Assembly (NCBI RefSeq): GCF_030013205.1
Contig: NZ_CP122648.1
DNA from: Escherichia coli
GTDB lineage: Bacteria; Pseudomonadota; Gammaproteobacteria; Enterobacterales; Enterobacteriaceae
Direction: 5' to 3' (one strand)
Length of the DNA: 64,000 nt
Part shown: positions 22,954 to 32,094 of the stretch, in pieces
Layout: every line of letters begins with the position of its first letter
How positions within the stretch are numbered: position 1 is the first letter of the stretch
Made by a program: the position numbers and the translations under genes
The notes under the pieces: model-generated
Told to the model about the DNA's origin: nothing
Databases searched by the model: none
The model's input: only the letters and a program-made list of their open reading frames with translations

Positions 22954-23898
22954 ATGAGTCCTGATAATATCAGTTCTGCTGTCAATCGCTTCTCAGGTTG
23001 GCCATCTAATGATCCTCTAAAAACAGATAAAGAATCAATGACATCACCCATGACTGTGCAGGTAATAAAGATGATTGCCGCCATCCTTGACCCACATCGG
23101 ATAGTCGTTGGAATCGATACACTTTATACAACGCAGCGCGAAACATTTACCTCAGAGAGTCAACAGCTCATTGAATCAGCATTGCAAACACTTCATGTGA
23201 TGAATTTAAATAACCTGGAAACAAATCTCGATGAGGAAGGTCACTATCTGGCTTTTGGATATAACGTTGACACTCCTGACAGAATAACCGTTTCTGCTTA
23301 TAATGAAAAAAAGCCTGGCTGCTATGGCCAATGTCTTTTAATACAGGATGACGAAACAGACTTATTTAACCTGATAAAAGTTAAAATTTTTGAAGCCAGA
23401 CATAATTATGTCGCTCAATTGATGAGCGATCCGGAATTTATGTTCAAATTTAGTTATAGCGCTCAACAAAATAGATTAGAACCTCATCTTCTGGTTCCCA
23501 CTTATTTCCCTCTAAAAACAAACGAACCGGTTACGCAAGAGGATGTACTGTTACTTTATCGTTTCTTTAAAATGGATGGTGATTTTAATATATTAACATC
23601 AGATGAATACATGAGCATCATGACACCTCTGATGAAGTGTGAGCGCAGCATCCACGACCACAACAGGTATGTGACGGGCAAAGATACCCTTCTTCTGGAC
23701 TATCCTCCTTCTGGTAACCAGATATATTTCCATATTTTTCCTGACGAATCAGCAACACTAGTCCTTTATTTTTCAAACAATGACATTGAATGTTTCGTCT
23801 TTGAAAGAGATATTCCGAGCCAGTATCGCTTTTTCAAAATGTTTACCAATCTGGCACTGGTTATTGATCAGTTAACCGATGCCAATCAAATACTTTAA
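22954..23898 (+). CDS. Hypothetical protein (314 aa), low-GC orphan, no recognisable family
   Basis: Uninterrupted ORF with GAGG RBS 8 nt upstream of the ATG; AT-rich codon usage (spot counts 25/60 and 18/60 G+C) unlike neighbouring core genes. Confidence 0.6.
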   Translation: MSPDNISSAVNRFSGWPSNDPLKTDKESMTSPMTVQVIKMIAAILDPHRIVVGIDTLYTTQRETFTSESQQLIESALQTLHVMNLNNLETNLDEEGHYLAFGYNVDTPDRITVSAYNEKKPGCYGQCLLIQDDETDLFNLIKVKIFEARHNYVAQLMSDPEFMFKFSYSAQQNRLEPHLLVPTYFPLKTNEPVTQEDVLLLYRFFKMDGDFNILTSDEYMSIMTPLMKCERSIHDHNRYVTGKDTLLLDYPPSGNQIYFHIFPDESATLVLYFSNNDIECFVFERDIPSQYRFFKMFTNLALVIDQLTDANQIL

Positions 23899-23978: not shown

Positions 23979-24401
23979 ATGATCCCATCTCAAATCTCTT
24001 TCAACACCCTTCCTGTCAATGCAACATACGCTTCAGAGACAACAGTTGACACACAAAAATTCTCTGACATCCTCTACTCAGCGGGGTGTTCCCTAAAGGA
24101 TCTGGCTTATCTGAGCAGATGTCTGGCATCAATACATCCGACTATCGCCAAAAACATTTATGAAACAGAAAATCTCAGCGATCAAAAATTACTACATATT
24201 GATTGCCGTAGTACAAATGAAATCAAGATAAATATCTTTTTTGGTCAACAACGAGAAGGATTAATTGAAATTAGTTCTGACACAGTCATTTTTTCGATAC
24301 TGTCTTCATTGATTGACTCCACCATTTCTAAATTTCAACACCAAAACCCCGTTAACGGTTCTGTAAATCCTGACCTATTGTATGAGGATTATACTGATTA
24401 A
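23979..24401 (+). CDS. Hypothetical protein (140 aa), low-GC orphan, no recognisable family
   Basis: ORF 80 bp downstream of the 314-aa ORF on the same strand, similar composition; polar Ser/Thr/Ile/Asn/Pro-rich N-terminus. Confidence 0.5.
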   Translation: MIPSQISFNTLPVNATYASETTVDTQKFSDILYSAGCSLKDLAYLSRCLASIHPTIAKNIYETENLSDQKLLHIDCRSTNEIKINIFFGQQREGLIEISSDTVIFSILSSLIDSTISKFQHQNPVNGSVNPDLLYEDYTD

Positions 24402-24948
24402 ATCCCTCCTGTCGCGAAAAATGGCCTGCGTTATTGCCAGACGTAATAAAACTTTTGATTAACGTTTCTCGTACTGGTAGCACCTTCATGTACTTTTCTT
24501 TTTTACGAAAAATCAAAAGAGCTAACAAAGGTCATAATTCGCATGAATCATTAATTATTTGTTATTTTCAACATTATTTTTACATTAAGCAGAGATGAAT
24601 TGCTGTGAAATTCGACTTAACTTTTATGAAATGCATTTACTCATGGCTAAAGCCACGTCACAAAAATGCAAATTAGAAGTTGATCACAATTATCTCAATA
24701 CATCAAATCAAGTTAATTTTAAAAATTTAACATTCATGACATCAGTTGACATAACACACTGAATTAAAATGAGAATTTGAAAACACACTTTAAACAATCA
24801 TTTCCCGAAAGACATTTTGAAAATAGATCAATTGCAACATTACGGTCAGATAAAGACACTCCTGTGATATTAAACCTGTGCCGTTATGAACGGCCATAAA
24901 TACGACGTGTGTAACTTATTTTACTCTCTGTCTTACAAAGGATTACCC
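24402..24948 (+). promoter_or_regulatory. AT-rich leader / probable promoter region of the glutamate mutase operon
   Basis: 547 bp of AT-rich non-coding DNA directly upstream of the first operon gene; no ORF of 60 aa or more. Confidence 0.4.
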
Positions 24949-25398
24949 ATGAAGAAAGCAACACTTGTGATTGGCGTTATTGGCGCGGACTGCCATGCAG
25001 TAGGCAATAAAGTTCTGGACCGCGTTTTTAGCAACCATGGCTTCAGAGTCATTAATCTGGGCGTAATGGTCAGCCAGGACGAATATATTGATGCGGCCAT
25101 TGAAACTGGCGCTGACGCGATTGTCGTCTCCTCTATCTATGGGCATGGCGATATCGATTGTCTGGGCATGCGCGAACGCTGCATTGAGCGTGGGCTGGGT
25201 AACATCCTGCTCTATGTGGGCGGTAACCTGGTGGTCGGAAAACATGACTTCGCTGACGTGGAAACCAAGTTCAAAGAGATGGGATTTGATCGCGTCTTTT
25301 CCCCAAGTCATGACTTAGAAGATGTTTGTCAGCTGATGGCCCACGATATCAACCAACGTCATGACGTTGATACTCGCATTCTTGAAGAGGCAATCTGA
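24949..25398 (+). CDS. Glutamate mutase sigma (S) subunit, B12-binding (methylaspartate mutase small subunit)
   Basis: Start chosen at [21 protein letters not shown] (AAGGA RBS upstream); DxHxxG cobalamin-binding motif; aligns by eye with recalled Clostridium GlmS/MutS. Confidence 0.85.
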
Positions 25399-26786
25399 TG
25401 CAAATCGTCTCTGTCGATATTGGTTCGACGTGGACCAAAGCAGCCCTCTTCACCCGGGAGGGGGACGCGTTAACGTTGGTTAACCACGTTCTGACCCCAA
25501 CCACCACCCATCATCTGGCGAAGGGGTTTTTCTCCAGCCTGGACCAGGTGTTAAACGTAGATGATGCCCTCCCCCTGTTAAACAGTGGTGAGGTTGCATT
25601 GAAGTATTCCTCCTCTGCCAAAGGTGGGCTGGCGGTTGCCGCAATGGGATTGGTGCCTTCTATCACCCTGGAAACCGCGAAAGTAACCGCTCACTCTGCG
25701 GGTGCTAAAATTGCGCAATATTACGCCTACAAGCTGAACCGCCGTGATATCCAGGCACTGGAAGAAACGCAGCCCGATATTCTCTTGTTCACCGGCGGCA
25801 CCGATGGCGGAGAAGAAAGCTACGGACTGAATAACGCCCGTGTGTTGGCAGAATCCAAACTCGACTGCGCCATTATTTATGCCGGAAACCGGGATATTCA
25901 GGACGAGGTGCAGGAGGTCCTCGGGCATAAAGACCTGACCATCGTCGACAACGTTCTGCCCGATCTTGACCATCCGAACCCTTTAGCCGCACGCCAGGCT
26001 ATTTGCGACATATTCCTTAAACGCATCGTTAAAGGGAAAGGGCTGGATGTCATTGTTGATAAAACAGGCGAAGAACCAATGCCGACACCATGGACGGTCT
26101 TTGAACTGGTTAAGGCAATCAGTAACGTCGATCACAGCTGGAAAGAGTTCATGCTGATCGACATGGGCGGCGCAACCACCGATGTTTATTCCGCCTGTGC
26201 CAACACGCTCTCGCCCGACACCGTTCTACACGGCGTACCGGAACCCTTCGTGAAACGGACGGTGGAAGGCGATCTGGGAATGCGCGTCTCGGCAATGGTG
26301 GTTGGTGAAAGTGCGAAAGAGTTAGTCAATGTGAATTTTGCTCAGCAACCCGCACAGCTGGACGCTTTTTATCATTACCTCCGCCATCTAGTCGCTCATC
26401 CCGACTACTTACCCGCGAATGCAGAAGAAAAATATTTCGATACCGTCCTGGCCGGAGTGTGTGTGGGTTATGCCACCGAAAGACATGCGGGCACCAAAAA
26501 AGAGGTCTGCACCTGCGTCGGCAATGTCGATTTACAGATGGGACGTGATCTGACAACCGTGCGTAAAGTCGTGGGTTCCGGCGGATGGCTCTCGCGTGCC
26601 AGTCAGTTCGATATGCATCACTGGTTGAAATACCGCGAGTTAAACGACGACGGTAAACGCATTCTCTTACCGACCGAATTTGAATATTACCGCGATTCCC
26701 GGGGGCTATTACCACTGCTGGCAAACGTCGCCAGAGTCGATCCGCTGGCCGCCGCGCGCACCAGTATTCAATGCTTAACCCTATAA
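25398..26786 (+). CDS. Glutamate mutase-associated protein GlmL/MutL-like
   Basis: 462-aa ORF lying between the S and E subunit genes, the same order as in the clostridial operon; start overlaps the upstream stop. Confidence 0.7.
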   Translation: MQIVSVDIGSTWTKAALFTREGDALTLVNHVLTPTTTHHLAKGFFSSLDQVLNVDDALPLLNSGEVALKYSSSAKGGLAVAAMGLVPSITLETAKVTAHSAGAKIAQYYAYKLNRRDIQALEETQPDILLFTGGTDGGEESYGLNNARVLAESKLDCAIIYAGNRDIQDEVQEVLGHKDLTIVDNVLPDLDHPNPLAARQAICDIFLKRIVKGKGLDVIVDKTGEEPMPTPWTVFELVKAISNVDHSWKEFMLIDMGGATTDVYSACANTLSPDTVLHGVPEPFVKRTVEGDLGMRVSAMVVGESAKELVNVNFAQQPAQLDAFYHYLRHLVAHPDYLPANAEEKYFDTVLAGVCVGYATERHAGTKKEVCTCVGNVDLQMGRDLTTVRKVVGSGGWLSRASQFDMHHWLKYRELNDDGKRILLPTEFEYYRDSRGLLPLLANVARVDPLAAARTSIQCLTL

Positions 26787-26804
26787 CAATTAAGGCTGCA
26801 ATCA

Positions 26805-28250
26805 ATGGAACTTCGAAATAAGAAATTAACCCATGACGAATTCATGACCGAGCGGCAACAGGTACTGAAAACCTGGGAAACCGGCAAGGATGTTGAAAAC
26901 TTTGAAGATGGCGTTAAATACCAACAAACCATCCCTGAGCATAAACGCTTCTCTCTTGCGCTGCTGAAAGCAGACAAGGAAGGTAAAACCCTTAGCCAAC
27001 CGCGCGCAGGTGTGGCGCTGATGGACGAACACATCGAACTACTGAAAACACTACAAGAAGAGTGCGATCTGCTGCCGAGCACTATCGATGCATATACCCG
27101 TCTGAATCGGTACGAAGAAGCGGCTGTAGGGATTAAAAAATCCATCGAAGCCGGAACCTCTAAACTGAACGGTTTGCCGGTAGTTAACCATGGCGTCGCA
27201 GCTTGCCGTCGCCTCACCGAAGCCCTGCAAAAACCGCTACAGATCCGCCACGGCACGCCAGATGCGCGTCTGCTGGCTGAAATCTCGATGTCCAGCGGCT
27301 TTACCAGTTACGAAGGCGGCGGCATTTCCTACAACATTCCGTATGCCAAACGCGTAACGCTGGAAAAATCGATCCGCGACTGGCAGTACTGCGACCGTTT
27401 AATGGGGATGTATGAAGAACACGGGATCCGCATCAACCGCGAACCGTTTGGCCCACTAACGGGTACGCTGATCCCGCCGTTTATCTCGCACTCTATCGCG
27501 ATCATCGAAGGCTTGCTGGCGCTGGAACAGGGTGTGAAATCTATCACCGTTGGTTATGGACAGGTCGGCAGCCTGACGCAGGATGTTGCGGCGATCCAGT
27601 CTCTGCGTGAACTTGCACACGAATATTTTCAGAGCTATGGCTATACCGACTATGAATTAAGTACCGTGTTTCACCAGTGGATGGGCGGCTTTCCGGAAGA
27701 CGAATCGAAAGCGTTCGCTATTATCTCCTGGGGCGCAGCCGTCGCGGGGATGTCTGGTGCCACCAAAGTCATCACCAAAAGTCCGCACGAAGCCTGGGGT
27801 ATCCCGACTGCCGCTGCCAACATTCAGGGGCTGAAAGCCTCCCGCCAGATGCTCAACATGGTCAACGAGCAGAAATTCCCGCCGTGCCCTGCGGTTGAAC
27901 TGGAAATTGAACTGATTAAGAGCGAGGTTCGCGCAGTACTGAATAAAGTGTTCGAACTGGGTAATGGTGATATTGCGCGCGGTACGGTGCTGGCATTTGA
28001 AGCGGGCGTACTGGATGTGCCGTTTGCACCAGCCGCGTGTAACGCGGGCAAAATTCTTCCGGTCCGTGACAACACCGGCGCGATACGCGTACTGGAAGCC
28101 GGAGCCGTTCCATTGCCAAAAGATATTCTCGACCTCCACCACGATTACGTTGCTGAACGCGCACGCTTTGAAGGACGCCAACCGACATTCCAGATGGTTG
28201 TAGATGACATCAATGCTGTATCCCACAGTAAATTAATAGGAAGACCATAA
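26805..28250 (+). CDS. Glutamate mutase epsilon (E) subunit (methylaspartate mutase large subunit)
   Basis: 481-aa ORF, size and position consistent with GlmE/MutE; TIM-barrel-type sequence. Confidence 0.8.
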   Translation: MELRNKKLTHDEFMTERQQVLKTWETGKDVENFEDGVKYQQTIPEHKRFSLALLKADKEGKTLSQPRAGVALMDEHIELLKTLQEECDLLPSTIDAYTRLNRYEEAAVGIKKSIEAGTSKLNGLPVVNHGVAACRRLTEALQKPLQIRHGTPDARLLAEISMSSGFTSYEGGGISYNIPYAKRVTLEKSIRDWQYCDRLMGMYEEHGIRINREPFGPLTGTLIPPFISHSIAIIEGLLALEQGVKSITVGYGQVGSLTQDVAAIQSLRELAHEYFQSYGYTDYELSTVFHQWMGGFPEDESKAFAIISWGAAVAGMSGATKVITKSPHEAWGIPTAAANIQGLKASRQMLNMVNEQKFPPCPAVELEIELIKSEVRAVLNKVFELGNGDIARGTVLAFEAGVLDVPFAPAACNAGKILPVRDNTGAIRVLEAGAVPLPKDILDLHHDYVAERARFEGRQPTFQMVVDDINAVSHSKLIGRP

Positions 28251-29491
28251 TGAAAATAAAACAGGCCCTGTTCACCGCTGGCTACTCCTCATTCTATTTC
28301 GATGACCAGCAGGCGATAAAAAACGGAGCGGGTCATGACGGCTTTTTTTATACCGGGGAGCCAGTAACACAGGGGTTTAACGCCGTACGTCAGGCCGGGG
28401 AGTGCGTATCGGTACAGTTGATTCTGGAAAACGGCGCGGTCGCCGTAGGTGACTGTGCTGCCGTACAGTATTCCGGGGCAGGTGGTCGCGATCCACTGTT
28501 CCTCGCGGAGCACTTTATTCCGTTCCTCAACGACCATATCAAGCCATTACTGGTAGGCCGCGATGTGGATACTTTCCTGCCGAATGCCCGTTTCTTCGAC
28601 AAATTGCGTATTGACGGCAACTTGCTGCATACCGCCGTGCGCTACGGATTATCACAGGCGCTGCTTGATGCTACCGCGCTGGCAACCGGCCGTCTGAAAA
28701 CTGAAGTGGTCTGTGATGAATGGCAGTTGCCACGCGTGGCGGAATCCATTCCATTATTTGGTCAGAGCGGCGACGATCGATATATCGCCGTCGATAAGAT
28801 GATCCTTAAGGGCATCGACGTGCTGCCCCATGCACTGATTAATAACGTCGAAGAGAAACTGGGCTTTAAAGGTGAAAAACTGCGCGAATATGTCCGCTGG
28901 CTGTCGGATCGTATTCTGAGCAAGCGCACCAGCGCACGCTACCACCCTACCCTGCACATCGATGTATACGGCACTATCGGTCTGATCTTCGATATGGATC
29001 CGCTTCGCTGTGCGCAATACATCGCCAGCCTGGAAAAAGAAGCGCAAGGCCTGCCGCTCTACATTGAAGGTCCGGTCGATGCCGGTAACAAGCCCGATCA
29101 AATTCGCCTGCTGACCGCGATTACCAAAGAGCTGACGCGCCTCGGTTCCGGCGTGAAACTAGTGGCCGATGAATGGTGTAACACCTACCAGGATATTGTT
29201 GATTTCACCGATGCCGCCAGTTGCCACATGGTGCAAATCAAAACCCCGGATCTGGGCAGTATTCACAACATCGTCAATGCAGTTCTTTATTGCAACAGCC
29301 ACAGCATGGAAGCGTACCAGGGCGGCACCTGCAATGAAACTGATGTCAGTGCCCGCACCTGTGTCCACGTCGCCCTTGCCGCTCGCCCCATGCGTATGCT
29401 GGTAAAACCAGGGATGGGCTTTGACGAAGGCCTCGATATCGTCTTCAACGAAATGAATCGTACTATCGCGCTGTTGCAGGCTAAGGATTAA
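28250..29491 (+). CDS. 3-Methylaspartate ammonia-lyase
   Basis: 413-aa ORF (enolase superfamily size), immediately downstream of and overlapping the E subunit gene (TAATG). Confidence 0.8.
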   Translation: MKIKQALFTAGYSSFYFDDQQAIKNGAGHDGFFYTGEPVTQGFNAVRQAGECVSVQLILENGAVAVGDCAAVQYSGAGGRDPLFLAEHFIPFLNDHIKPLLVGRDVDTFLPNARFFDKLRIDGNLLHTAVRYGLSQALLDATALATGRLKTEVVCDEWQLPRVAESIPLFGQSGDDRYIAVDKMILKGIDVLPHALINNVEEKLGFKGEKLREYVRWLSDRILSKRTSARYHPTLHIDVYGTIGLIFDMDPLRCAQYIASLEKEAQGLPLYIEGPVDAGNKPDQIRLLTAITKELTRLGSGVKLVADEWCNTYQDIVDFTDAASCHMVQIKTPDLGSIHNIVNAVLYCNSHSMEAYQGGTCNETDVSARTCVHVALAARPMRMLVKPGMGFDEGLDIVFNEMNRTIALLQAKD

Positions 29492-29494
29492 CAA

Positions 29495-30865
29495 ATGGCT
29501 CGTTCTTTTAAAGTCTTATCGCCTACGGCAATCCTCGGGTATGGATTCCCGGAGGAGAGCTTCCGCAAAGCGATGGCAGAATCGCCCGATCTGATCGCCG
29601 TTGATGCTGGCTCTTCCGATCCTGGCCCCCACTACCTCGGGGCGGGCAAACCGTTTACCGATCGCGCAGGGGTCAAGCGCGATCTGCGCTATATGATCAC
29701 CGCAGGCGTGCAAAATAATATACCGGTGGTGATCGGAACGGCCGGCGGTTCTGGTGCCGCTCCACACCTGGAGTGGTGCCGAGAAATAATTCATGAGATT
29801 GCCCGGGAAGAGCACCTCTCGTTCTCGATGGCGCTGATCCCGGCAGACGTTGACAAAGCCATCGTCCACCAGGCGCTGGATAACGGCAAAATCACGGCGC
29901 TGGATTTTGTCCCGCCGTTAACCCACGACGCGATTGACGAAAGTACGTATATCGTCGCGCAAATGGGCATCGAACCCTTCCAGCAGGCGCTGAAAGAAGG
30001 CGCGCAAGTGGTGCTGGGCGGGCGCGCTTACGACCCGGCCTGCTTTGCTGCGCTACCGATCATGCAAGGCTTTGATGAAGGTCTGGCGCTGCATTGTGGG
30101 AAAATCCTTGAATGCGCGGCAATCGCCGCAACGCCCGGCTCAGGCTCTGACTGTGCGATGGGCATCATTGATGACAACGGCTTTACGCTGAAGACATTTA
30201 ATCCGAAGCGTAAATTTACCGAAACGTCAGCAGCTGCACACACACTGTATGAGAAATCCGATCCCTACTTCCTGCCAGGACCTGGCGGCGTGTTGAACCT
30301 GAAAAGCTGCACATTTAAAGCGGTCAATGACGGCGAAGTGTACGTCAGCGGTTCTAAGCATGAAGAAACGCCGTATTCCCTGAAACTGGAAGGTGCGCGA
30401 CGGGTGGGCTTCCGCTGTCTGACCATCGCCGGAACGCGCGACCCGATCATGATCGCCGGGATCGATAAAATCATCGATGAAGTCAAAACCAGCGTTTCGC
30501 GTAACCTGTCGCTCGACGATGACAGCATTCACATCAATTTCCACCTGTACGGCAAAAACGGGGTGATGGGCGACCATGAACCGATGCAAACTGCCGGGCA
30601 TGAGCTGGGGATTGTCCTTGATGTAGTTGCACCGACCCAGGAAATTGCCAACAGCGTTTGCTCGCTGGTGCGCTCTACCATGCTGCACTACGGCTATGAA
30701 AACCGCATCGCTACCGCAGGTAATCTGGCGTTCCCGTTCTCCCCTTCTGATATTCAGGGCGGGCCGGTATACGAATTTTCCATATATCACCTGATTGAAG
30801 CCAACGACGCTCTGCGTTTTGATTTCCATATTGAACAGGTGACGCCAGAAGGAGTTCAGGCATGA
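29495..30865 (+). CDS. DUF1446 (AtuA-like) family protein, function unknown
   Basis: 456-aa ORF 3 nt after the lyase stop; family assignment from memory of this size class and its usual pairing with a small DUF4387 partner. Confidence 0.55.
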   Translation: MARSFKVLSPTAILGYGFPEESFRKAMAESPDLIAVDAGSSDPGPHYLGAGKPFTDRAGVKRDLRYMITAGVQNNIPVVIGTAGGSGAAPHLEWCREIIHEIAREEHLSFSMALIPADVDKAIVHQALDNGKITALDFVPPLTHDAIDESTYIVAQMGIEPFQQALKEGAQVVLGGRAYDPACFAALPIMQGFDEGLALHCGKILECAAIAATPGSGSDCAMGIIDDNGFTLKTFNPKRKFTETSAAAHTLYEKSDPYFLPGPGGVLNLKSCTFKAVNDGEVYVSGSKHEETPYSLKLEGARRVGFRCLTIAGTRDPIMIAGIDKIIDEVKTSVSRNLSLDDDSIHINFHLYGKNGVMGDHEPMQTAGHELGIVLDVVAPTQEIANSVCSLVRSTMLHYGYENRIATAGNLAFPFSPSDIQGGPVYEFSIYHLIEANDALRFDFHIEQVTPEGVQA

Positions 30866-31061
30866 AACAGTCAATTGTCTCACTGGCGCAAGTCATTCGT
30901 TCGAAAAATGCCGGACCTTACGAACTGGTTTTAGATATTTTATTTAAAACCAAAGAAAACTATGAGCGAGTCAAATCATCAGGGCAATTAACCCCAGAAC
31001 TGATTGGGTGATGCTGCCAACTTACTGATTTAGTGTATGATGGTGTTTTTGAGGTGCTCCA

Positions 31062-31337
31062 GTGGCTTCTGTTTCTATCAGCTGTCCCTCCTGTTCAGCT
31101 ACTGACGGGGTGGTGCGTAACGGCAAAAGCACCGCCGGACATCAGCGCTATCTCTGCTCTCACTGCCGTAAAACATGGCAACTACAGTTCACTTACGCCG
31201 CCTCTCAGCCCGGTACGCACCAGAAAATCATTGATATGGCCATGAATGGCGTCGGATGTCGCGCCAGTGCACGCATTATTGGCGTTGGCCTCAACACGAT
31301 TTTCCGCCACTTAAAAAACTCAGGCCGCAGTCGGTAA
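31062..31337 (+). CDS. insA: IS1 protein InsA
   Basis: 91-aa ORF with zinc-finger Cys residues (CPSCSA...CSHC). Confidence 0.9.
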
Positions 31338-31759
31338 CCTCGCGCATACAACCGGGCAGTGATGTGATTGTCTGCGCTGAAATGGACGAACAGTGGGGCT
31401 ACGTCGGTGCTAAATCACGTCAGCGCTGGCTGTTTTACGCGTATGACAGGATGCGGAGGACGGTTGTGGCGCACGTCTTCGGTGAACGCACTCTGGCCAC
31501 ACTGGAGCGTCTTCTGAGCCTGCTGTCGGCCTTTGAGGTCGTGGTATGGATGACGGATGGCTGGCCGCTGTATGAATCACGCCTGAAGGGAAAGCTGCAC
31601 GTTATCAGCAAGCGTTATACTCAGCGCATTGAGCGGCATAACCTGAATCTGAGACAACATCTGGCAAGGCTGGGACGGAAGTCACTGTCGTTCTCAAAAT
31701 CGGTGGAGCTGCATGACAAGGTCATCGGGCATTATCTGAACATAAAACACTATCAGTAA
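31256..31759 (+). CDS. insB: IS1 InsB frame (expressed as InsAB' transposase by -1 frameshift)
   Basis: 167-aa ORF in the -1 frame relative to insA; slippery A-run (ttaaaaaactc) at about 31311-31321. Confidence 0.9.
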
Positions 31760-32094
31760 GTTGGAGTCATTACCACTGATTGCGCGCTTATATCATGTTG
31801 AACCTGACTTTATTCACCGTATTGTCTGGTTTGATCCTTCTAACGCAGTAAAAATCGTCATGCCACGAGATATTATCTCCGGGAATGTAGGTGACAATGA
31901 TGTCTATGGTGCACAGCAACATGCACCTTTATTAAATATGAGTTTCGATTTGTAAAAATCCGAATACTTTTAGCCAACTGACATCCCGTCACTTATTGCA
32001 GTTCAACACTTCAGCTATTTGTAAGGTTGTAATAGCAGGTAGATGCCTGAATCTCTATTCAGGCATCTACTTCTCCTGATTCTGATTTATCGCC

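Follow-up and report, generated by a model that had tools for sequence, protein, structure and literature searches.

The two genes that directly follow the methylaspartate ammonia-lyase gene mal in a glutamate-fermentation island of Escherichia coli very probably encode a heteromeric citramalate lyase, CmlAB, which would catalyze the last step of the island's methylaspartate pathway. This reading is based on identity to PDB entries 9ERQ and 9EVF, on the names and titles given by their depositors, on a preprint using the enzyme, and on gene context. In the window analyzed here, 64,000 nt of E. coli (assembly GCF_030013205.1, contig NZ_CP122648.1), the small-subunit gene is interrupted by IS1. 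The locus is thus a disrupted allele of the CmlAB family, not a functional member, as the intact small-subunit gene needed for a functional heteromer is absent from the window. The features of the locus are as follows:

24949..25398, + strand: glmS, methylaspartate (glutamate) mutase subunit S (NCBIfam NF002612, E 8e-76)
25398..26786, + strand: glmL, mutase accessory/reactivating protein (TIGR01319, NF040745)
26805..28250, + strand: glmE, methylaspartate mutase subunit E (TIGR01503, E 4e-260)
28250..29491, + strand: mal, methylaspartate ammonia-lyase (TIGR01502, E 7e-163; PDB 1KKO, E 1e-268)
29495..30865, + strand: cmlA, predicted citramalate lyase large subunit (AtuA/DUF1446 family), intact, 456 aa
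30862..31006, + strand: cmlB 5′ fragment, codons 1-48, DUF4387, predicted citramalate lyase small subunit (PF14330 match and 9ERQ chain B identity of the restored protein)
30999..31006, unstranded: left copy of the 8-bp target duplication ACTGATTG (comparison with the empty site in K_EC180)
31007..31774, + strand: IS1, 768 bp, oriented as the operon, with terminal inverted repeats GGTGATGCTGCCAACTTACTGAT / GGTAATGACTCCAACTTACTGAT
31775..31782, unstranded: right copy of the duplication ACTGATTG (same comparison)
31783..31955, + strand: cmlB 3′ fragment, codons 49-105 and stop (tblastn of restored CmlB: residues 47-105, 100% identity)
32038..32071, + strand: stable hairpin between cmlB and the symporter gene (RNA fold -27.2 kcal/mol, z -5.4 vs shuffles)
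32116..33396, + strand: gltP/dctA-like dicarboxylate/amino acid:cation symporter (NF002461 and NF008440, both below curated cut-offs; RefSeq annotation)
33504..35156, + strand: fumD, class I fumarase acting as mesaconase, mesaconate to (S)-citramalate (NF011921, 1282 bits; biochemistry of the O157:H7 protein in PMC4682846)
35166..35768, + strand: cobA/cobO, cob(I)yrinic acid a,c-diamide adenosyltransferase (NF004637, TIGR00708)
35772-35798: strong terminator-like hairpin 3′ of cobA/cobO
35802..36707, - strand: divergent LysR-type regulator (GcvA-like LysR match; RefSeq annotation)

The 456-aa protein matches chain A of 9ERQ/9EVF over its full length, with 417 of 456 residues identical (91.4%), no gaps and E 4e-290, and its fold is the same as that of solved CmlA (TM 0.97). 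Restored CmlB (105 aa) shares 88 of 104 residues with 9ERQ chain B (84.6%, E 5e-57). The depositors named the two chains, which occur together within the same entries, “citramalate lyase, subunit A (cmlA)” and “subunit B (cmlB),” and entitled the entries “Citramalate lyase - AMPPNP - citramalate complex” and “Citramalate lyase - ADP - pyruvate complex.” CmlA was the only strong match when the PDB was searched with the 456-aa protein, and an NCBIfam search found no model for CmlA or CmlB. Pfam assigns residues 63-394 of CmlA to AtuA (PF07287, formerly DUF1446; i-E 2.3e-19), a weak score which places CmlA on a divergent branch of that family, and residues 6-101 of restored CmlB to DUF4387 (PF14330, i-E 2.9e-39). 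The family-invariant residues D42, G44, G87, G158, G176, R177, D180, and G353 are all present in the CmlA of the window. Natural AtuA-DUF4387 fusions, found in 18 of 150 family representatives, support a physical complex between the two subunits. The idea of a citramalate lyase came first from analogy with AtuA and ThnQS, an analogy that the PDB match makes unnecessary.

The function of the pair is already known, and the initial annotation, whose family names are correct, is out of date in calling the proteins uncharacterized. It had offered several roles for the pair within the glutamate mutase/methylaspartase process: the structural matches and the co-occurrence described below bear out the general placement, and the match to solved CmlA/CmlB singles out citramalate handling. 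Mesaconate handling and mutase maintenance are not supported: FumD is the mesaconase (PMC4682846), and GlmL serves the mutase. That the reaction is (S)-citramalate to pyruvate and acetate is indicated by the PDB names and titles together with the preprint, and would extend to the E. coli protein by homology. In the preprint, growth on mesaconate required FumA and Cml, citramalate was cleaved directly to pyruvate and acetate, and 13C labelling confirmed the carbon flow; the evolved strains up-regulated Acs, which fits free acetate as product. Our literature searches yielded no primary account of CmlAB kinetics or mechanism and turned up only this preprint; a full-text search on DUF4387 found no paper.

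The arrangement of the genes places cmlA and cmlB in a tightly packed run. As the initial annotation had it, the 456-aa gene begins 3 nt after the methylaspartase stop and shares an ATGA with the small gene, and all these coordinates hold: the mal stop TAA (29489-29491) is followed by CAA and the cmlA ATG at 29495, with an AAGGA Shine-Dalgarno sequence within the mal 3′ end, and the cmlA stop and cmlB start share the ATGA at 30862-30865, with AGGAG 7 nt 5′ of the junction. Overlaps also join glmS to glmL (TGATG at 25396-25400, 1 nt) and glmE to mal (TAATG at 28248-28252). The proposal of a single coupled run from glmS to the small gene stands as regards this packing but not at the glmL-glmE junction, where an 18-nt spacer (26786 to 26805) replaces an overlap. 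The start of glmS is at 24949 rather than at the upstream ATG at 24886, as in the RefSeq annotation of the O157:H7 allele. In a promoter scan, sigma-70-like sites were fewer than in shuffled sequence, and no usable start of the operon emerged. Further downstream, the hairpin at 32038..32071 is possibly a partial terminator or an RNA-stabilizing element, the gltP/dctA-like gene is labelled as the glutamate transporter in PMC4682846 (Fig 5), and the LysR-type gene is, from its position, a putative regulator of the island.

Based on these assignments, the island would ferment glutamate in four steps. GlmSE would convert glutamate to (2S,3S)-3-methylaspartate with the help of GlmL and of adenosylcobalamin, for which the cobA/cobO product is the predicted source; Mal would release ammonia to give mesaconate; FumD would hydrate mesaconate to (S)-citramalate; and CmlAB (CmlA, 456 aa, AtuA family; CmlB, 105 aa, DUF4387) would cleave citramalate to pyruvate and acetate, substituting for the acyl-carrier-protein-dependent CitDEF-type lyase of clostridia. 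FumD does produce (S)-citramalate, the fate of which in O157:H7 was “still unclear” in 2015 (PMC4682846). In that study, extracts of O157:H7 showed Kronen and Berg neither citramalate lyase nor methylaspartase activity (PMC4682846), so the island was not expressed under those conditions. In solved CmlAB, an adenine nucleotide is bound beside substrate and product, as the titles of 9ERQ and 9EVF indicate. ATP may form an acyl phosphate on the carboxymethyl carboxylate, so that the acetate unit would leave as a stabilized enolate; the acyl phosphate would then play the role that the thioester has in CitDEF and in CoA-dependent lyases. The nucleotide could instead be structural or allosteric.

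To place the pair across genomes, we surveyed the best 80 of at least 563 mal-centered loci from GTDB species genomes. The results agree strongly with the co-occurrence expected by the initial annotation: cmlA lies directly downstream of mal in 39 of the 80 loci. The order and strand of mal-cmlA-cmlB are kept in 38 of these 39 (in the other, the contig ends inside cmlA), and cmlA and cmlB share an ATGA or GTGA stop-start overlap in 20 of the 38. Conservation of this order across at least ten phyla indicates that the arrangement is not due to chance. The full order glmS-glmL-glmE-mal-cmlA-cmlB is shared by Riflebacteria, Lentisphaerae, Aminicenantes, Spirochaetes, Planctomycetota, Verrucomicrobia, Latescibacterota, Myxococcota, and Beta/Gammaproteobacteria. 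Genes for the classical lyase CitDEF, marked by citF, occur in 19 of the 80 loci, all from Clostridia or other Firmicutes, and never together with cmlA (0/80; Fisher p = 3e-7). Of the mal loci flanked by at least 5 kb on each side, 27 carry cmlA, 16 citF, and 10 neither; CitE-like genes lie near mal in 5 of these 10. In the 80 loci, CmlAB and CitDEF are thus mutually exclusive alternatives, outside and within the Firmicutes, respectively, and this exclusion makes CmlAB the enzyme that had been missing from the end of the methylaspartate pathway in non-Firmicutes. Consistently, tblastn with E. coli CitC, D, E, F, X, and G gave no match in the window at E 1e-3, so that the window holds no CitDEF homologue. 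[quoted passage not shown]

Comparison with known systems shows how far these likenesses extend. The solved CmlAB is the Raoultella planticola enzyme, from the Berg laboratory, which has the same two-subunit architecture of 456 and 105 aa and whose genes likewise follow mal in a glutamate-fermentation island of an enterobacterium; it differs in its source and in that the E. coli enzyme, whose cmlB is interrupted here, is known in this work from sequence. CitDEF of the Clostridium tetanomorphum type performs the same cleavage of (S)-citramalate to pyruvate and acetate at the same place in the pathway, and its genes likewise cluster with glm, mal, and mesaconase genes. However, the two lyases share no homology, and CitDEF depends on citC/X/G helpers and on an acyl carrier subunit whose prosthetic group is phosphoribosyl-dephospho-CoA, whereas CmlAB has no carrier subunit, prosthetic group, or cit helpers and binds an adenine nucleotide instead. 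The citramalyl-CoA and malyl-CoA lyases (CitE-like) of the methylaspartate cycle and of itaconate degradation also remove the C5-dicarboxylate carbon that comes from mesaconate or citramalate, but they depend on CoA and on a CoA-transferase, and their fold is unrelated. In Pfam, ThnQ/ThnS, from the anaerobic breakdown of naphthalene, and Pseudomonas AtuA fall into the families of CmlAB (AtuA and DUF4387, separate or fused), and they share its type of C-C cleavage, at a tertiary hydroxylated carbon with release of a carboxymethyl or acetate fragment (PMC12016498). Unlike CmlAB, they act on CoA esters of larger acids, and they are only distantly related to CmlA (Pfam AtuA match E = 2e-19). To our knowledge, AtuA itself has a proposed role rather than one demonstrated biochemically.

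These relatives raise the question of whether the pair is a CoA-thioester lyase, with citramalyl-CoA or a related CoA ester as its substrate in place of free citramalate. ThnQS and the proposed 3-hydroxy-3-isohexenylglutaryl-CoA:acetate lyase role of AtuA would be its models, and the Pfam family takes its name from a pathway of acyclic terpene CoA esters. We consider this very unlikely, given that the island has no CoA-transferase or CoA-ligase gene, that the crystal complexes hold free citramalate or pyruvate with a nucleotide, and that the preprint reports direct cleavage. Moreover, the bond broken in ThnQS-type substrates also adjoins the carbon bearing a free carboxylate, so that the CoA group belongs to the ketone product and is not the activating group.

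The tight coupling of cmlA to mal, together with the many database records that call the large protein “3-methylaspartate ammonia-lyase,” could point to service of the upstream enzymes, as a second methylaspartase-like activity or a factor for mutase maintenance or reactivation. According to Kronen and Berg, that label has no known basis (PMC4682846). CmlA has no sequence or fold similarity to the enolase-superfamily MAL; PF05034 and PF07476 are absent from the 456-aa protein, for which Pfam gives only AtuA and the PDB only CmlA. With GlmL already there as accessory protein, and the mutual exclusion with citDEF indicating the lyase step, such a role is highly improbable. Nor does fortuitous hitch-hiking of genes of unrelated function seem credible, although the island is accessory (1122 of 5426 complete E. 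coli genomes, about one fifth of E. coli, with O157:H7 among carriers) and flanked by AT-rich hypothetical genes: the same gene order recurs across phyla, and a 55%-identical relative outside mal clusters still adjoins genes for class I fumarase of the mesaconase type. On this evidence, we rejected all four alternatives (second methylaspartase, mutase chaperone, CoA-ester lyase, and chance linkage) in favor of citramalate lyase.

In the strain studied here, this lyase is probably inactive because IS1 truncates cmlB. The interval from 30862 to 31955 is not one ORF, since IS1 breaks cmlB after codon 48. The 5′ fragment runs into IS1 and stops after 49 aa, 48 of them native. The element carries insA and insB (31062-31337 and 31256-31759), and its sequence matches E. 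coli genomes at thousands of sites that bear the annotation IS1 family transposase. Removal of IS1 and of one duplication copy leaves 318 nt, identical at 318/318 positions to the intact allele of E. coli K_EC180. The IS1 allele occurs in only 5 of ∼1122 E. coli genomes with the cmlAB pair; the IS1-free allele sought by the initial annotation exists in ∼1117 complete genomes, K_EC180 and O157:H7 among them. Loss of the small subunit from the complex would most likely block the pathway at citramalate, and IS1 is possibly polar on gltP-fumD-cobA. The strain is a natural cmlB knock-out and possibly a ready-made control for physiology experiments.

The AtuA/DUF4387 family comprises 2389 cluster representatives at 50% identity (E up to 1e-3). 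We tentatively propose, as a possibility on which we would not yet rely, that it forms a large and mechanistically new class of C-C lyases, in which a transient acyl phosphate made from the nucleotide would let the enzymes cleave a carboxymethyl or acetate unit off a tertiary alcohol carbon with no need for a thioester, and that the P-loop protein may be an unrecognized accessory factor of the methylaspartate pathway. If such a class exists, a single chemistry would underlie CmlAB, ThnQS, and Pseudomonas AtuA, and the majority of AtuA/DUF4387 members would act on unknown hydroxy-acids. The names “AtuA family protein” and “DUF4387,” and the wrong “methylaspartate ammonia-lyase,” can now be replaced in RefSeq/PGAP, Pfam, and NCBIfam. 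Taken together, CmlAB answers the question of the fate of citramalate in island-bearing enterobacteria, open in 2015 (PMC4682846), and supplies the final step by which many pathogens can turn gut glutamate into pyruvate and acetate.

The identity of the two-gene pair was, in our judgment, decided by a PDB sequence search, in which CmlA aligned without gaps to chain A of 9ERQ/9EVF (91.4% identity, E = 4e-290) and CmlB, restored by removing an IS1 insertion, aligned equally without gaps to chain B (84.6% identity, E = 5e-57). The depositors name these chains “Citramalate lyase, subunit A (cmlA)” and “subunit B (cmlB).” The initial annotation, which had guessed that the pair acts in the methylaspartate pathway and had listed citramalate handling among the options, was thus right. 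In domain searches, the 456-aa CmlA matches Pfam AtuA (PF07287, formerly DUF1446) weakly (E = 2e-19), the restored 105-aa CmlB matches Pfam DUF4387 (E = 3e-39), and NCBIfam holds no model for either. The PDB sequence shares 96–97% identity with its orthologues in Citrobacter, Klebsiella, and Lelliottia, consistent with an enterobacterial source. In a preprint using Cml, growth on mesaconate was Cml-dependent, with carbon flow confirmed by 13C labelling. Several CmlA orthologues (records P0003, P0060, and P0073) are labelled “3-methylaspartate ammonia-lyase,” a mis-annotation already remarked by Kronen and Berg (PMC4682846) that is still spreading in databases.

The pair lies within a tightly packed gene cluster, as follows.

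Upstream of cmlAB: glmS, glmL, and glmE (glutamate mutase subunits S and E with accessory protein GlmL) and mal (methylaspartase)
29495-30865 (+): cmlA, 456 aa
From 30862 (+): cmlB, split by IS1 at 31007-31774
Downstream of cmlAB: GltP/DctA-like symporter, fumD (mesaconase), cobalamin adenosyltransferase gene, divergent LysR regulator

An ORF list and inspection of the nucleotide sequence itself bore out all the junction coordinates first proposed: the mal stop codon (TAA, 29489-29491) precedes the cmlA ATG at 29495, the cmlA stop shares ATGA (30862-30865) with the cmlB start, and glmS/glmL and glmE/mal overlap by one base each (TGATG, 25396-25400, and TAATG, 28248-28252, respectively). The only separated pair noted is glmL-glmE, with an 18-nt spacer, and the Shine-Dalgarno motifs at the junctions are located within the coding sequence of the upstream gene. 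Between cmlB and the transporter gene, a hairpin at 32038-32071 (-27 kcal/mol, z -5.4) has a perfect stem of 14-16 bp, GTAGATGCCTGAAT / ATTCAGGCATCTAC, and then a tail that is U-rich but interrupted; this element may serve as a partial terminator, or in processing or stability, dividing the island into two transcription units. A strong terminator-like hairpin lies 3′ of cobA. At the other edge, between cydA and glmS, two hypothetical ORFs of 314 and 140 aa (22954-23898 and 23979-24401) are AT-rich, their GC content of 35-37% being below the roughly 52% of the island; NCBIfam gives no match to either, the O157:H7 annotation calls each a “hypothetical protein,” and they look like a separate acquired module.

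In the window, CmlA is intact, and cmlB is interrupted after codon 48 by a 768-bp IS1 that is oriented like the operon, flanked by an 8-bp target duplication, ACTGATTG; the insertion may have polar effects on the downstream genes. The 5′ fragment of cmlB runs to a stop after 49 aa. Since only 48 native residues of CmlB are left, the heteromer would be unable to form as in the crystal structures, and we consider the lyase probably inactive in this strain. Removing IS1 and one duplication copy leaves 318 nt, identical at 318/318 positions to the intact allele of E. coli K_EC180, so that the IS1-free allele sought in the initial annotation is available. The cmlAB region of the window is 100% identical to that of strain ETEC4079, and only five E. 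coli genomes have matches covering ≥80% of the IS1-containing query. Of 5426 complete E. coli genomes, 1122 carry the pair itself, each with a single copy located between cydAB and sucABCD.

Kronen and Berg demonstrated that O157:H7 FumD works efficiently as a mesaconase, noted a DUF1446 gene 3′ of mal in enterobacteria and Dictyoglomus, found no citramalate lyase activity in O157:H7 extracts, and judged the fate of (S)-citramalate “still unclear” (PMC4682846). Using a methylaspartase alignment in which the Clostridium tetanomorphum enzyme was represented, we searched a single genome for each GTDB species, retained the best 80 mal loci, and probed these by tblastn with the island proteins and E. 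coli CitCDEFXG. Co-occurrence with methylaspartate genes was borne out, with cmlA beside mal in 39 of the 80 loci; citF was found in 19 and both in none (Fisher p = 3e-7). When only the 53 loci flanked by 5 kb or more on each side are counted, 27 carry CmlAB, 16 CitDEF, and 10 neither. In every cmlA locus the gene directly follows mal (-25 to +167 nt), cmlB comes next in 38 of 39 (the exception being a contig that ends inside cmlA), and the start and stop of the two genes overlap in 20 of those 38. Homologues of 60-66% identity from Riflebacteria and two further uncultured lineages keep the order glmS-mutL-glmE-mal-AtuA-DUF4387. CmlAB loci span Enterobacterales, Betaproteobacteria, Riflebacteria, Lentisphaerae, Aminicenantes, Spirochaetes, Planctomycetota, Verrucomicrobia, Latescibacterota, and Myxococcota, CitDEF loci among the 80 belong exclusively to Clostridia or other Firmicutes, and no CitDEF homologue was found in the window. 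Such a partition is what one would expect if two non-homologous enzymes served the same step.

Half of the 10 loci with neither lyase have only a CitE-like gene, suggesting CoA-dependent routes. The mal loci L024, L025, L045, L049, and L052 (Marinobacter, Tabrizicola, Glaciecola, Pirellulales, and Arenicella), in which neither CmlAB nor CitDF is present, have a CitE-like gene located 1-3 kb 3′ of mal and probably use citramalyl-, malyl-, or beta-methylmalyl-CoA lyase routes, e.g., the methylaspartate cycle; no glmE lies near mal in L041, L045, and L052. In Yersinia aldovae ATCC 35236 (L018:11229-12047), the cmlA match is limited to residues 1-233, the ORF stopping early and leaving a 568-nt gap to cmlB, which may be a second, independent lyase inactivation (frameshift or pseudogene) or an assembly error.

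Cml is documented as a CmlA-CmlB heteromer that forms complexes with citramalate plus an ATP analogue and with pyruvate plus ADP, and that yields pyruvate and acetate. Removal of acetate from a free carboxylic acid should require a stabilised acetate enolate. CitDEF and the CoA-dependent lyases achieve this via a thioester, whereas CmlAB has a nucleotide site but neither acyl carrier protein nor CoA, so that an acyl-phosphate route appears the most economical mechanism. The carboxymethyl carboxylate would be phosphorylated to an acyl phosphate, retro-aldol cleavage would give pyruvate and enolised acetyl phosphate, and the phosphoryl group would return to ADP, making ATP catalytic, or else be lost by hydrolysis or release.

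HMMER, run over all 1.84 billion cluster representatives, returned 2389 relatives at E up to 1e-3. Among the best 150 there are 18 AtuA-DUF4387 fusions, an argument that the two polypeptides function as a unit, and relatives of 44-50% identity lie in unrelated contexts with a DUF4387 gene next in every case. The AtuA-like lyase ThnQ/ThnS of anaerobic naphthalene degradation, whose substrates are CoA esters, carries out what is formally the bond cleavage seen with citramalate (PMC12016498). A 55%-identical CmlA relative and its DUF4387 partner sit in an operon (L093:8001-15596 and L094:6201-13796) that lacks mal and glm genes and encodes an M20 peptidase, an amidohydrolase, a DcuC-type transporter, and class I fumarase alpha/beta. 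A hydratase is thus again paired with the lyase, suggesting another pathway that ends in a hydratase and Cml-type-lyase module, possibly one that degrades an N-acylated or carbamoylated amino acid.

A gene for a P-loop protein of about 315 aa, with Walker A GxxGxGKST near residue 55 (L003:11698-12654, L006:11677-12618, and L002:11712-12665), follows cmlB in loci L023-L055 and lies beside citC/citX/citG in L057-L084. It occurs in 22 of 39 CmlAB loci, 11 of 19 CitDEF loci, and 4 with neither lyase, joining glutamate mutase/methylaspartase clusters irrespective of lyase type; the E. coli window has cobA/cobO instead. The protein has no match in Pfam, NCBIfam, or PDB, and we speculate that it could be an accessory factor so far overlooked, perhaps one connected with B12.

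The function of CmlAB is already established by others: the 9ERQ/9EVF structures became public in October 2025, and others have used the enzyme from then on. Our analysis adds a mutually exclusive distribution of CmlAB and CitDEF that splits along phylogeny, a defined IS1 knock-out allele of cmlB, the recognition that public annotation lags behind the known function, and an uncharacterised but conserved P-loop gene that goes along with the methylaspartate pathway.
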